This document shows positions 32,523 to 52,335 of a stretch of DNA of 64,000 bases, piece after piece. The DNA lies in contig CALBGL010000066.1 of the NCBI GenBank assembly GCA_937892735.1, forward strand, positions 226 to 64,225, read 5' to 3'. Each line of letters starts with the position of its first letter. The first letter of the stretch is position 1. The notes beneath the pieces are model-generated. The model ran no database searches and was not told the DNA's origin. It saw nothing but the letters and a program-made list of their open reading frames with translations. This DNA is from an uncultured Clostridia bacterium. GTDB lineage: Bacteria > Bacillota > Clostridia > Lachnospirales > Bianqueaceae. A program made the translations under genes and the position numbers.

Positions 32523-34067
32523 TTAGTCTTCCACTCCTCTCGTTGATGGGTTAAAGGCATCTCGCAGGCCATTACCAAACAGGTTAAAGGAAATCAAGAG
32601 CAACGCAAAATACAAGGCTGGGAAGAACATCGCGTGAGGCGATGTCGTCATAGACGTCTGTCCCTGACTCAGTAGTGTACCAATACTGGTTCCTACCAAA
32701 TCCATCAGATTCACGATGCCCAAATACGTCAACGTAGTCTCAGTATTGACTACGTTTGGGATGATTAAAGCACAGCTCGTCACAATGGTTCCCAGAGAAT
32801 TGGGGAAAATATGCTTAAACATCAACCGCTTGTCCGATGCTCCCAGAGTCCGGGCCGCATATACAAATTCCTGATTCTTAAAACGATAAAACTGTTTTCT
32901 GGTCAGTGCCGCCATGCTAATCCACCCTGTCAACATGAATGCGAATAGGAAAGATCCTACCGTTCCTACTTTTTGCGCCAGATGCAATTGGAACAAGGTT
33001 GCCACCACAATGAATGGAACTGCCGACAAAATATCACTGATACGGTCCATGACAAGATCGATCTTACCTCCATAGTATCCCTGAATCGCGCCATAAATCG
33101 CACCAATCGTCAGATTGATGGCAGAAACAACAACTGCAAAAATCAGAGAGAACCGCGAACCGATACCGATACCCGCGAATAAATCCTGACCCAAGGTGTT
33201 TGTTCCAAAGATATAAAACGGCTCATGACCATTTGTATAAATATAATAATTATAATAGCAAATACGGCACTGAACCGCCCCAGAACGACGCACGCTATAG
33301 ATATAGCTGCCATCATCTCCTTCTACACGAAGGCTATTGTATTCCGCTCCCTCGATTGCCTTATTGGTAGAATAGGCGGGGATAAAATTATTATTCTCAT
33401 CCAGAACCGCGGTTCCACGAGTATCCGATATCTGATACCAGATATTGGGATTATCCGAGATTCCTTGAATAGCTTCAGGTTCTACATAGGGATAAATCAC
33501 CTGAATACCTGTCTCATTCTGAAACTGCTGGATCTTTTCAAACTCATCGTACGAGAACACACGGTATACCACACCCGTCTCATAGTATTTATTCGTCTCC
33601 AAGCGATAGCTATGAGACTCTTTCTCCTGTCCGCGATACATCGAAACGGTTGTCGTTGTATTGAGAATTCGAATAATCGGATTCATCCCCGTCTCTTCGC
33701 CAATTCCTCTCCAGTAATTATACTGAATATCATTCTGACTCTCATGCACCACCGCACCATCAAACAAACCGATCCCCATGTTGGCAATGGATTCAATAAA
33801 AGGAGGCGAGTTGGTGTATACCGTATCTCGATCATCCATCGTATAGGGTGAAATCATCGGGGCAAAAATAGAGAACAGAATCAAAAAGCCAATGATATAG
33901 GCCGCTACGACGGAAGATTTATTCTTCTTAAACCGAATCAGAGCATCGGCAAAATAACTTCGGTTCTTAGTCTCAAACTTCTGGTCGTGCAGCTTTGCAT
34001 CCAACTGAGCGAACTCAAACTTCTCCGCTGGGATGTGTTCGTATTCTACATTCTGGTTCATGTTCAT
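32523..34067 (-). CDS. Opp/Dpp-type ABC transporter permease (OppC-like) with a large extracytoplasmic loop
   Basis: C-terminal BPD-transporter core (AARTLGASD..L.FKHI.PN) with a ~215-aa loop between TM1 and TM2; 514 aa. Confidence 0.85.
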   Translation of the reverse strand: MNMNQNVEYEHIPAEKFEFAQLDAKLHDQKFETKNRSYFADALIRFKKNKSSVVAAYIIGFLILFSIFAPMISPYTMDDRDTVYTNSPPFIESIANMGIGLFDGAVVHESQNDIQYNYWRGIGEETGMNPIIRILNTTTTVSMYRGQEKESHSYRLETNKYYETGVVYRVFSYDEFEKIQQFQNETGIQVIYPYVEPEAIQGISDNPNIWYQISDTRGTAVLDENNNFIPAYSTNKAIEGAEYNSLRVEGDDGSYIYSVRRSGAVQCRICYYNYYIYTNGHEPFYIFGTNTLGQDLFAGIGIGSRFSLIFAVVVSAINLTIGAIYGAIQGYYGGKIDLVMDRISDILSAVPFIVVATLFQLHLAQKVGTVGSFLFAFMLTGWISMAALTRKQFYRFKNQEFVYAARTLGASDKRLMFKHIFPNSLGTIVTSCALIIPNVVNTETTLTYLGIVNLMDLVGTSIGTLLSQGQTSMTTSPHAMFFPALYFALLLISFNLFGNGLRDAFNPSTRGVED

Positions 34068-50315: not shown

Positions 50316-50693
50316 TCAATTTGAAATAACAGGATCTTCTTGTAATAATTCTTCATATTCTTTGGCTTCTTCCTGCGCTAGAACGCGTTCCAGAAAGACG
50401 CGGTCATGAAACAGGCCATTGGTTCTTGCCTTCATCTGCCGAAGTTTTTCCAGTTCTTCCATGTTGAGTCCTCTCGCCAGTAAAATCGCATTGATCACTT
50501 CCACGACATCCGCCAACTCTTCCATACTTCGACTTGCCATGTACTCTCTCATTTCTTCCTTCAGTTTCTCATGTAGCGCATACAAATATTCATCATCATC
50601 CAGATGCCGTATTAACGGTGTATATCCATCTCGCTTCATAATTTCCGGGACACGATCCCTGACCAATTTGTTGTAAATCCGTTCTTTTTTCAT
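50316..50693 (-). CDS. MazG/PRA-PH-like nucleoside triphosphate pyrophosphohydrolase
   Basis: 125 aa with YNKLVRDRVPEI...L..KL.EE..EY......EELADV.EV motifs of the all-alpha NTP pyrophosphatase superfamily. Confidence 0.7.
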   Translation of the reverse strand: MKKERIYNKLVRDRVPEIMKRDGYTPLIRHLDDDEYLYALHEKLKEEMREYMASRSMEELADVVEVINAILLARGLNMEELEKLRQMKARTNGLFHDRVFLERVLAQEEAKEYEELLQEDPVISN

Positions 50694-50705
50694 TGTCTGC
50701 CCCCC

Positions 50706-51293
50706 CTATTCGGCTGATTTTCGGAATATAATTTCTCCTGTTTGTTCATCCATAGTATCTACGATAGCTAACGATTCTACCCGAATTCCCCGTTTTCTAA
50801 GAAGATCGCCCCCCGGCTGAAACCCCTTTTCAATTCCGATGCCAATCCCCTCTACCGTTCCTTCGGCTTCTTCCACCAACTGGATAAGCCCTGCGACAGC
50901 ACATCCATTGGCTAAAAAATCGTCTATAATCAAAACATGATCTTCTGGTAATAAGAATTTCCGAGAAACCAAAATAGGATACATTCTGCCATGTGTAAAA
51001 GACTTTACTTCTGCAGTATATACTTCCTCATCTAAGTTCATACTCTTACTTTTTTTAGCAAATACCACCGGAACATGAAAATATTGTGCTGTAATACATG
51101 CTAATCCAATCCCTGAAGCTTCAATCGTCAAAATCTTATTGACCGGCCGATCCGAAAATCTTCGCGAAAACTCCTGCCCCATCGCATTAAAAAGATCTAT
51201 ATCCATTTGGTGATTCAGAAAACTATCTACTCGTAGTACATTTCCGTTACGAACCACACCTTCTTTACGAATGCGTTCTTCCAATTGTTTCAT
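50706..51293 (-). CDS. xpt: xanthine phosphoribosyltransferase
   Basis: MKQLEERIRKEG.V..GNVLRVDSFLNHQ.D...ILTIEASGI...VFAKK...IIDDFLANG motifs. Start at the ATG preceded by AAGGAG. Confidence 0.9.
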   Translation of the reverse strand: MKQLEERIRKEGVVRNGNVLRVDSFLNHQMDIDLFNAMGQEFSRRFSDRPVNKILTIEASGIGLACITAQYFHVPVVFAKKSKSMNLDEEVYTAEVKSFTHGRMYPILVSRKFLLPEDHVLIIDDFLANGCAVAGLIQLVEEAEGTVEGIGIGIEKGFQPGGDLLRKRGIRVESLAIVDTMDEQTGEIIFRKSAE

Positions 51294-51317
51294 GCAACTT
51301 CTCCTTTGTACGCTCTT

Positions 51318-51611
51318 GAAACAAACGTCCTTGACGGCCATCTCAGGACATGGCTCAGTCCCTACCGTATAGAGATCTATCATGCCACGCCTATTTTACC
51401 ATAAGGGCAAATGGCTTTCGGAGATGCACGCCCTTTGGCAGGCATCTCAAGGCGTAATCCATCATTACGGTGTAGAAAACTTCCAAGCCACGCCTATTAT
51501 ACCACAACAAGACTTCCGTCGGAGTTTGACGCCCTTTGGCGGCAAACTCTGGGCGTGGCTCAGCCACCTATAACTATAGGAATCTATCAAGCCACGCCTA
51601 TTATACCACAT
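51318..51611 (-). repeat. three tandem ~104-nt repeats in the xpt leader, each with a TGGTATAAT-like box and a conserved hairpin
   Basis: GCCACGCCTATT(A/T)TACCA recurs at 51384, 51487 and 51591 on the plus strand. Hairpins sit at 51522-51549, 51421-51448 and 51318-51344, and their stems differ by compensatory changes. Confidence 0.85.
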
Positions 51612-51629
51612 GTTTCCTTTTTTTGTAAA
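51600..51629 (-). promoter_or_regulatory. sigma-A type promoter (extended -10) for xpt
   Basis: Reverse strand reads TTTACA, 18 nt, TGGTATAAT. It lies inside the most upstream repeat unit. Confidence 0.6.
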
Positions 51630-51657
51630 CCCTTATTTCAGCAATTGTCGTATTAAT

Positions 51658-52335
51658 TTACAAGTATAATTCCGTACAAAGCAAACGATACGGCATTTCA
51701 TCTTCTTCGATCTGGGGGAAGCGCCCAATTTTTTCATAAAAGCGATTATCATTCTCATCGTCATTACACATGGATACTTCTCCCAACAGTACATCCCCAC
51801 TTCCCCGTTCTACATGAAAGTCATGATACAGATAGGGTGGCACTGTCAGACTCTCCCCTGGCGTGAGTCGGATCTGTGTACCTGCCCGTACGCATCTTTG
51901 AGCTCCATCCGTATGAATCACCGCCGGTGTATCCGCTAATTCCCCCTCAGAAGTAGAATTATAGACGGTAATCAGAACATTGCCACCCCCTCGATTTATG
52001 ATATCTTCCATCTTATTCCAATGGAAATGCATAGGAGCCGTCTGTCCTTCTTTGAGCATAAGCAATTTCTCCGCGTATGGCTTTGGATATTGATCAACCA
52101 TTTTCACGTTTCCATTCCGGAGCGTAATCAGCGCAAACCCCACCTCATCAAAACGTCCCAAGCCATAGTCCGTGATATCCCAGCCGAGATGATTATCTCG
52201 AATCTCTTGGCATTCCTCGCCCTTCTCTTTCCATTCCTGCGGAGTCCATTTGCAGAACGGCGGGATCTGCACTCCACATTTTCGGATCAAAGTTTCCATT
52301 TCTCGAATCGCCTGATTGATTCTGGATCGTTTCAT
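51658..52335 (-). CDS. D-lyxose/D-mannose ketol-isomerase-like cupin
   Basis: ...GWDITDYGLG.F...G..L.T.RNG.......Y..KLL...EGQ..P.HFH..K.EDIINRGGG... pattern. Start at MKRSRIN, preceded by GGGGGAAGG. Confidence 0.75.
   Translation of the reverse strand: MKRSRINQAIREMETLIRKCGVQIPPFCKWTPQEWKEKGEECQEIRDNHLGWDITDYGLGRFDEVGFALITLRNGNVKMVDQYPKPYAEKLLMLKEGQTAPMHFHWNKMEDIINRGGGNVLITVYNSTSEGELADTPAVIHTDGAQRCVRAGTQIRLTPGESLTVPPYLYHDFHVERGSGDVLLGEVSMCNDDENDNRFYEKIGRFPQIEEDEMPYRLLCTELYL

Follow-up and report, generated by a model that had tools for sequence, protein, structure and literature searches.

The window analysed here, a 64,000-nt stretch of DNA from an uncultured Clostridia bacterium (Bianqueaceae; contig CALBGL010000066.1), carries on its minus strand the gene xpt for a xanthine phosphoribosyltransferase, and the leader of this gene holds three tandem copies of a structured repeat unit of about 104 nt. 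A first-pass annotation made from the sequence alone had reported the repeat and guessed that it senses a purine or a related ligand in place of the guanine riboswitch expected at this position. Here, at least 11 unrelated genes of Candidatus Faecimorpha stercoravium and its close relatives were found to have the same unit directly upstream, and compensatory and G-U changes maintain the two hairpins of the unit (P1, with the inner hairpin P1b, and P2). On balance, we lean towards the reading that the xpt leader is built from three copies of a genus-specific cassette, which joins a promoter to a structured 5′ leader, and is not a purine sensor. This family is as yet undescribed; nothing in Rfam matches it, and the papers that name the genus are taxonomic only.

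Three diverged units in the leader of xpt

Coordinates are window positions unless a contig is named, and the array is given in minus-strand orientation. Between the stop codon of the lyxose-isomerase gene (51660-51658) and the xpt ATG (51293) lies a spacer of 364 nt that contains, as had been described, three head-to-tail units: unit A (51608-51505, 104 nt), which resembles the family consensus more than the other two do, unit B (51504-51402, 103 nt) and unit C (51401 to about 51311, about 91 nt). All three begin with TGGTA(T/A)AATAGGCGTGGC, and the 17-mer GGTAWAATAGGCGTGGC occurs in exactly three perfect copies (51607-51591, 51503-51487 and 51400-51384). When up to three mismatches were allowed, this 17-mer gave four matches in the window against 0.14 expected, a number equalled by none of 100 shuffles. 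Mean column identity in the alignment of the three units is 72%, and the array was left uncalled by Tandem Repeats Finder because its units are too diverged. Scores against a covariance model of the family were 97.9 bits for unit A, 71.5 for B and 78.4 for C, and the body of unit A is 83% identical to L020_1. A search with this model (R1) turned up no additional copy, either in the 64-kb window or in the regions flanking the searched loci; a plus-strand site at 33366-33382 (GGTAGAATAGGCGGGGA, three mismatches to the box) looks like chance, and the model finds no unit there. Across nine independent assemblies, the window leader shows only 0-1 differences.

Differences between the hairpins of A, B and C had been offered as paired, compensatory substitutions. 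As a simple record of evolution after a local triplication this does not hold, because each window unit is nearer to units elsewhere (70-83% identity) than to its neighbours (58-65%), and the GAGAUG-type P2 of units B and C is seen again at unrelated loci (the third unit of L010, and L026). For example, the P2 region of unit B and the third unit at the locus of maa, an acetyltransferase gene, share 85% identity across 40 nt. Independent insertion of A, B and C was considered and dropped, as the pattern is inseparable from star-like decay from a consensus. A second unit subtype, like window unit B (51448-51402), ends the maa arrays (L010 690-790, L025 2345-2440); its P2 reads GAGAUGCC...CAUCUCCGAAAGC, and the maa copies are without the 5′ strand of P1. 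The arrays seem to be ordered and modular, with type 1 units followed by one type 2 unit.

The unit stands in front of many unrelated genes

An exact-box scan with the pattern GGTAWAATAGGCGTGGCNTG, run on 185,579 species genomes with one genome per species, matched five contigs of one Ca. F. stercoravium metagenome-assembled genome (MAG) and two other MAGs of uncultured Clostridia/Lachnospiraceae; the remaining four matches were chance, the rest of the unit being absent. A second pattern, composed of P1 and the start of P2, was run on metagenomes and added eleven real contigs with about seven further loci. Matches on L011, L016, L017, L019, L021, L028 and L029 were again chance, none having the rest of the unit, and scans of viral contigs with two patterns gave no match.

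The genes directly behind the unit encode a maltose-type acetyltransferase (maa, Maa), a MATE efflux protein (MatE), Tex (tex), HypA (hypA), an Oxidored_FMN reductase of the old-yellow-enzyme type (OYE), a DUF2200 protein, dCTP deaminase (dcd), the CCA-adding enzyme (cca), a GNAT acetyltransferase, a Pyr_redox_2 protein resembling CoA-disulfide reductase/NADH oxidase (CoADR-like) and, in the window, Xpt. These proteins belong to unrelated Pfam families, and only one of the 11 loci, xpt itself, has a purine-related downstream gene. At every locus with a callable downstream gene, one to three units adjoin the gene start in gene-sense orientation, and orientation and position are strictly promoter-proximal at 11 of the 12 independent loci with readable context. 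The first units at five unlinked loci of MAG CHK195-9767 share 82-89% identity over 88-100 nt. A ligand sensor specific for purines or for xpt, taking the place of the guanine riboswitch, does not survive this distribution.

The window, which derives from a 'Lachnospirales bacterium' MAG, and Ca. F. stercoravium belong to one genus-level clade, as the 125-aa protein encoded behind xpt shares a 90% cluster with its Ca. F. stercoravium counterpart. Orthologs of the other element-bearing genes were not found in the window. At the Oxidored_FMN locus, the stretch TGTCAAGCATAGAAAATGCATA upstream of the unit (L015 1050-1150, L020 7450-7545) is conserved in two species beside the end of a divergent gene, and it may be an operator or a divergent promoter. 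Logan unitig assemblies (L008, L009, L035, L036) stop inside units upstream of xpt; the repeat breaks short-read assemblies because it is long and similar enough between loci, and unit copy number is probably under-represented in public MAGs.

Pairing is conserved in the sense RNA

In the consensus fold, P1 and P2 are consecutive hairpins joined by a variable 2-nt linker. P1 has 8 bp (GGCGUGGC with GCCACGCC) and an asymmetric internal region, in which WUGRNAG faces UGA, below an inner hairpin P1b that is variable and locus-specific; P2 has 7+4 bp with a C/U mismatch and a purine-rich loop, and is followed by a CUCCGA tail and, between units, by a small GAC-GNRA-GUC hairpin. Unit A follows this plan with P1 at 51598-51591 (GGCGUGGC) and 51559-51552 (GCCACGCC), P1b at 51582-51565, P2 (P2A) at 51549-51522 and, at its 3′ end, a CUCCGAC tail and a GAC-GGAA-GUC hairpin. 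Unit B has a shortened P1 (AGGCGU, 51495-51490, with ACGCCU, 51455-51450) and a P2 (P2B, 51448-51421) of the GAGAUGC subtype. In unit C, P1 (GCGUGGC, 51390-51384, with GCCAUGU, 51354-51348) includes two G-U pairs, and the outer stem of P2 (P2C, 51344-51318) includes four. The three hairpins quoted in the first-pass annotation are exact in the sequence, the CUCC tracts it mentioned are present, and the AGGCGTGGC box pairs as it had proposed, with GCCACGCC in A and ACGCCT in B, and also with GCCAUGU in C.

Compared with shuffled sequences, unit A alone (-43 kcal/mol) folds with z = -4.4 and the whole leader with z = -3.6. Among 29 distinct units, 91.6% of stem cells can pair, as against 38-44% after the partners have been shifted by 1-3 columns, and ten pairs are changed on both sides (two in P1, four in P1b and four in P2); none of 500 shuffles reached the observed pairing values. 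The clearest single comparison comes from hypA, whose leaders in Ca. F. stercoravium and in a sister species with a 77% identical HypA each have two units at the orthologous site. There, P1 changes from GGCGUGGC/GCCACGCC to GGCGCAGC/GCUGCGCC by two adjacent compensatory pairs and the sister-species P1b is a wholly different, well-paired stem (UUUUUC/GAAAAG), while the P2 stems are the same and fold stability is equal. In addition, P1 and P2 of unit C form only through sense-strand G-U pairs, and across P1, P1b and P2 there are 50 G-U cells against 26 A-C cells. These observations are drawn from stems that are almost sequence-invariant between loci and from a single genus-level clade. The earlier view that the hairpins are a selected RNA structure rather than the product of neutral duplication is borne out by the pairing over 29 units, the double-sided changes and the sense-only G-U pairs.

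The same data bear on whether the inverted repeats are instead double-stranded DNA operators, bound by a transcription factor at the promoter or immediately behind it. As operators might, P1 and P2 come close to perfect palindromes, directly follow the -10 box and are highly conserved in sequence. However, P2 variants alter both halves together (UUUG/CAAA, AUGC/GCAU, CUUG/CAAG), P2C and the P1 of unit C are palindromic only through G-U pairs and hence not in DNA, the arms of P1 lie 30-35 bp apart with a variable insert between them, and P1 covaries in the hypA ortholog. We consider DNA operators highly improbable.

A probable extended -10 box at the head of the unit

From its sequence context, the TGGTATAAT box appears to behave as an extended -10 promoter element. 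Box A (TGGTATAAT, 51600-51608) reads as an extended -10 with TGTG in front, conforming to the TRTGn motif, and lies behind a -35-like hexamer, TTTACA (51624-51629), at a distance of 18 nt from TATAAT; the pair scores 11 of 12 matches with the TG present. A preceding TG or TRTG is the extended -10, or -16, motif typical of Firmicutes. Box B (TGGTATAAT, 51504-51496) and box C (TGGTAAAAT, 51401-51393) head units B and C, and a -35 hexamer was found for unit A only, in agreement with the first-pass annotation. Upstream of the first units at 15 loci, the mean best -35 score at a spacing of 16-18 nt was 3.53 of 6 compared with a background of 2.43, and none of 20,000 resamples reached 3.53. A generic promoter scan calls the box in the window and in relatives. 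The box variants found across loci (TATAAT, TATAAA, TATACT and TACAAT) maintain a TA...T pattern, and judged by sequence they spare the key positions of a -10 hexamer. The gap between the upstream stop codon and box A in the window measures only about 50 nt, which leaves little room for another promoter, and the -35 upstream context is also present in the sister lineage. Of the two alternatives that had been left for the boxes in the first-pass annotation, transcribed sequence or extra extended -10 promoters, the latter is the better supported.

Box and hairpins can part company. The second units at L012, L013 and L022 have lost the box and kept the remainder of the unit intact, so the RNA fold does not depend on the box. 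The three boxes of the window have stayed intact despite 35-40% divergence of the bodies, and boxes B and C are thus either used or continually renewed.

Tandem structured repeats directly upstream of a gene, each with a promoter-like box, could also be genes of small RNAs or repeats of an antitoxin type, acting in trans or undergoing processing by the downstream product. Against this, no terminators lie between units, the downstream genes encode ordinary enzymes of many kinds with no endoribonuclease toxin among them, and many loci have a single unit; we give this explanation next to no weight. Type III toxin-antitoxin repeats (ToxI-like) were rejected on similar grounds, the downstream genes encoding diverse metabolic and housekeeping enzymes and many loci being single-unit.

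The leader as a proposed sensor

A search of the whole 64-kb window against Rfam 15 gave no match at the gathering threshold, and at E <= 10 only chance-level eukaryotic or irrelevant families were returned for 51200-51750 and for a canonical array from a relative. The covariance-model check proposed in the first-pass annotation thus assigned the units to no known family, RF00167 included. The purine riboswitch was rejected on structural grounds as well, the unit having no three-way junction (P1, P2, P3), no kissing loop-loop contact and no conserved J2/3, and folding as two consecutive hairpins. An xpt gene at 73% identity in another genus has neither the unit nor a purine riboswitch upstream, so that a guanine riboswitch is not strongly expected in this group, and in a sister lineage xpt is deleted from the locus while one unit is retained.

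A switching mechanism was likewise not apparent. Inspection revealed no pseudoknot in the unit, and four leaders, that of the window among them, yielded no terminator-like site. Sequestration of the Shine-Dalgarno (SD) sequence is inconsistent, its predicted unpaired probability ranging from 0.19 to 0.97 across 11 loci with 0.97 in the window, and the CUCC tails were rejected as anti-SD elements for want of consistent SD sequestration. Locus-specific pairing of P1b with the downstream start region was also dismissed (matched -10.6 vs mismatched -11.3 kcal/mol; permutation P = 0.80). The mutually exclusive folds that had been suggested are not conserved: the alternative long-range pairing of AGGCGUGGCUU with AAGCCAUUUGCC is predicted in unit B and absent from other units.

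Known protein-binding motifs were compared with the hairpins and set aside. A kink-turn, as bound by L7Ae/YbxF, calls for tandem sheared G-A/A-G pairs after a 3-nt bulge, with an invariant A at position 1n; the 5′ strand of the P1 internal loop (WUGRNAG) has only two nt before GA, GA becomes GG in three loci, and the 3′ UGA is replaced by UGC in four loci and, in the hypA ortholog, by UGC/UGU. Resemblances to PyrR, RAT and CsrA sites were dropped, since the P2 and P3 loops are variable and the Rfam PyrR model gave no match.

The purine-specific proposal is one version of a broader idea, namely that a new riboswitch, or a cis-regulatory RNA of another kind, has the unit as its aptamer and controls a dispersed regulon in response to one signal, which could be a metabolite, an ion or an RNA-binding protein, with tandem copies sharpening or multiplying the response. 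Several features are what such an RNA would display: pairing is conserved with covariation, the unpaired internal positions of P1 (UG...AG / UGA) and the C/U mismatch of P2 are conserved, the unit is always 5′ of genes in sense orientation and is maintained at orthologous hypA and xpt loci across species, and no Rfam family matches it. Yet the downstream functions have no common theme and are non-purine except for xpt, a terminator and uniform SD accessibility are both wanting, copy number is polymorphic within species, and one unit lies antisense in a coding gene. The two hairpins are, moreover, independent, with their variable linker and with neither a junction nor a visible pseudoknot, and the stems are near-invariant between unlinked loci, unlike those of known riboswitch classes, which the narrow phylogenetic range may explain. 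Taken together, we regard a cis-regulatory sensor as unlikely.

Units are gained, lost and possibly exchanged

Copy number varies at several loci. The hypA gene is preceded, within one species, by one unit in four contigs and by two in three others; the maa locus has 2+1 or 1+1 units, and the CoADR-like locus has one or two, the duplicated segment there reaching 14 nt upstream of the box. At the GNAT locus, two bodies are followed by a bare third box, and several other arrays are trailed by box-like remnants. In Ca. F. stercoravium, the locus syntenic with window 50694-51657 (L041 2289-2500; also L042-L049) retains the promoter context and one unit, which runs into the last 15 codons of xpt (MNEQTGEIVFRQSMK, then stop) and on to the 125-aa gene; the breakpoint of the xpt deletion lies in the unit linker. 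This lone unit has uncompensated stem changes and folds poorly (z = -1.2). One of its P1 positions is polymorphic (T/G) among strains.

A single insertion event was seen. In two samples (L034 1187-1303, L039 32-148), a unit without the TATAAT box lies antisense within a gene of the PD-(D/E)XK (PDDEXK_2) transposase family, between codons H30 and K31, where intact homologs are contiguous. The insert consists of the 93-nt body and an imperfect 12-bp direct repeat of gene-derived sequence (CTACTGTCTCAC / CTATTGTCTCAT in L039, both encoding LLSH in frame), in total 105 nt, which is about the tandem period of 103-104 nt. The reverse complement of the duplicated 12-mer matches the box TGTGGTATAATAG at 8 of 12 positions. 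The L034 copy of the PDDEXK_2 gene also has an in-frame stop.

Exchange is suggested by L025 (1602-3009, compared with L030 and L010), whose flanks match two different loci, the upstream one GNAT (96%) and the downstream one maa (96%), and the switch between the two falls within the unit. This one short contig reflects either recombination between dispersed units, in effect promoter swapping, or an assembly chimera.

Such events raise the question of whether the 93-nt body is a miniature non-autonomous mobile element that inserts by extended -10-like 12-mers and duplicates them, its hairpins being recognised by a mobilising enzyme, possibly as single-stranded DNA, and its promoter association being a by-product of target choice. 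The PDDEXK_2 insert fits, being exactly one period long with a 12-bp gene-derived direct repeat that resembles the box in reverse complement, and so do the bare third box at the GNAT locus, the remnants behind other arrays and the status of units as rearrangement hotspots. Set against these are the single insertion event seen, the absence of terminal inverted repeats and of a linked candidate transposase or integrase, the lack of a clean 3′ box in most arrays, stable inheritance at orthologous loci across species, the excess of G-U (50) over A-C (26) stem cells with a hairpin C that exists in sense RNA only, and the absence of copies from viral contigs. The duplication at the CoADR-like locus, extending 14 nt beyond the box, also fits unequal recombination better than a fixed 12-bp duplication. 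A mobile element of this kind seems to us quite unlikely. Two specific derivations were rejected: one from miniature inverted-repeat or Correia-type elements, as GCGTGGC... and ...GTCTTGTTG, with which the body begins and ends, form no inverted repeat and duplication was seen at one insertion only, and one from IS200/IS605-type palindromes (PATE/REP-like). The latter have hairpins near both ends and insert 3′ of a 4-5-nt target with no duplication, whereas the documented insertion here has a 12-bp duplication and P1 and P2 are not mutual copies.

Translation start of xpt and the downstream gene

The first gene behind the array is xpt (50706-51293, minus strand, 195 aa), whose identity as a xanthine phosphoribosyltransferase gene stands (NF006671, 267 bits against a cutoff of 177). 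Its translation initiation region (51285-51324) includes the SD sequence AAAGGAG (51307-51301), situated 10 nt after hairpin C as had been stated, and the ATG (51293-51291). The 3′ strand of P2C, UUGUUUC (51324-51318), is perfectly complementary to GAAACAA (51291-51285), which spans the G of AUG and codons 2-3 of xpt, so that the start region and hairpin C compete for one strand. Folding programs favour this helix over hairpin C and predict the SD sequence to be 97% and the AUG 35% unpaired in the window. The competing helix is not kept in an 84% xpt ortholog, and as modelled it may be a local feature relevant to xpt. The mechanically called xpt open reading frame (50706-51383, minus strand) starts at ATG 51383 and reaches 90 nt into unit C, and the same 90% protein cluster has members of 222 and 225 aa, so some gene callers use the extended start; the start backed by an SD sequence is 51293.

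The 125-aa gene (50316-50693, minus strand) lies 12 nt downstream of xpt. Its product had no match in Pfam, NCBIfam or PDB sequence searches, and members of its cluster are annotated at source as phosphoribosyl-ATP pyrophosphohydrolase or as NTP pyrophosphohydrolase/pyrophosphatase of the MazG superfamily, so that the earlier 'MazG-like' label rests on source annotation and is unconfirmed by profile.

Discussion

The cassette that we somewhat favour would have a period of about 104 nt, made up of a sigma-A-type extended -10 box, TRTGnTATAAT, and a body of about 93 nt whose sense RNA would fold into P1 (8 bp, with the locus-specific P1b) and P2 (7+4 bp), followed by the CUCCGA tail. In the window, box A with its TTTACA -35 would be the main promoter of the operon of xpt and the 125-aa gene, boxes B and C would provide additional extended -10 starts that have no -35, and the structured 5′ leader of every transcript would comprise one to three sets of hairpins. 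A stem at or near the 5′ end of a transcript is a classic protection against 5′-dependent decay in Firmicutes, and the leader would most likely shield the mRNA 5′ end or serve as a platform for a shared trans-acting factor; the strong sequence conservation of P1 and P2 suggests a specific partner for the hairpins. The module would have spread to many unrelated genes, its copy number shifting by recombination between units, and the array would set or tune expression level without purine sensing. The transcription starts, the effect of the leader on the mRNA and any trans-acting factor are those that we infer.

Several observations weigh against this reading. A start 5-8 nt after TATAAT would cut the 5′ strand of P1 in the first unit, although P1 is conserved even at single-unit loci. 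The sequence conservation of P1 and P2 across loci and species exceeds what a generic 5′ stabiliser needs and points to a partner, whether a protein, a ligand or a DNA-level machine. The longest-single unit, that of the xpt-deleted lineage, has uncompensated stems, and selection on structure is therefore not uniform. Finally, the gene set may be a coherent regulon that we have failed to recognise, and L025 could be an assembly chimera.

Somewhat different and, in our judgement, rather improbable is that the 93-nt body is an integrative element aimed at promoter boxes, or that a global regulator yet to be discovered binds the two-hairpin RNA. As an integrative element, it would target an extended -10-like sequence, duplicate 12 bp and so land directly behind host promoters, with arrays growing and shrinking at the duplicated boxes, and its transcribed structured RNA might aid its own propagation or act as a shared regulatory handle. 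As a regulator site, it would define a regulon in this genus.

Dispersed, promoter-bearing, structured repeats have precedents, and the built-in -10 box is unusual. Putative mobile promoters (PMPs) were defined by Matus-Garcia, Nijveen and van Passel (NAR 2012) as sequences that lie in front of non-homologous genes of one genome and are at least 80% identical across 50 nt or more (summarised in PMC3575422). According to that summary, some PMPs contain RNA motifs, most have no Rfam match or known way of moving, and the region on which they are defined, -150 to -50, mostly leaves out the -10 box; Correia and ERIC sequences are cited there as promoter-bearing repeats (PMC3575422). The repeat described here fits this operational definition, its copies at five unlinked loci within one MAG being 82-89% identical across 88-100 nt, and differs from PMPs as characterised there in having its -10 box within the repeat, in its tandem arrays and strain-level copy-number variation, and in its covariation-supported pairing. 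Signs of movement or exchange are the PDDEXK_2 insertion, the exchanged flanks of L025 (a possible chimera) and copy-number polymorphism.

BOX (Streptococcus pneumoniae), ERIC and Correia elements are dispersed intergenic sequences of about 100-150 nt that are transcribed into stable RNA folds; some modularity or tandem reiteration (boxB) is seen among them, they can alter the expression of neighbouring genes, and Correia elements supply promoters. The present family resembles them as a short, dispersed, probably transcribed and structured intergenic repeat, but it shares no sequence similarity with them, has no terminal inverted repeats, is promoter-proximal in 11 of 12 loci and is confined to one genus-level clade. 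Unlike Correia elements, which duplicate TA, it showed a 12-bp duplication, seen once. With the purine riboswitch RF00167 it has in common its place in the 5′ leader of a Firmicute xpt and a UAUAAU followed by a G+C-rich stem, but not a covariance-model match at E <= 10, an expression platform or a restriction to purine genes. The 5′ stabiliser stem-loops of Firmicutes, such as those of the aprE and ermC leaders, are single, gene-specific hairpins. Like these, the unit has a stable stem at or within a few nt of the predicted start and, in P1b, a structure kept over sequence; unlike them, it is a conserved two-hairpin module that precedes many genes and occurs in tandem.

A tandem structured repeat in an xpt leader resembles an orphan purine riboswitch, and the multi-locus distribution, which rules against one, removes a false lead. 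A practical consequence is that the repeat leads gene callers to extend xpt into unit C. What emerges as new is a covariation-supported, RNA-forming repeat family with a built-in -10 box, confined to a genus of uncultured gut Clostridia, which appears to rewire or tune many unrelated genes by duplication, deletion, apparently recombination and, at least once, insertion. The covariation, the conservation at orthologous sites and the one clean insertion leave room for a new regulator or targeting mechanism, and a trans-acting partner or a targeting mechanism would, if true, be new biology.

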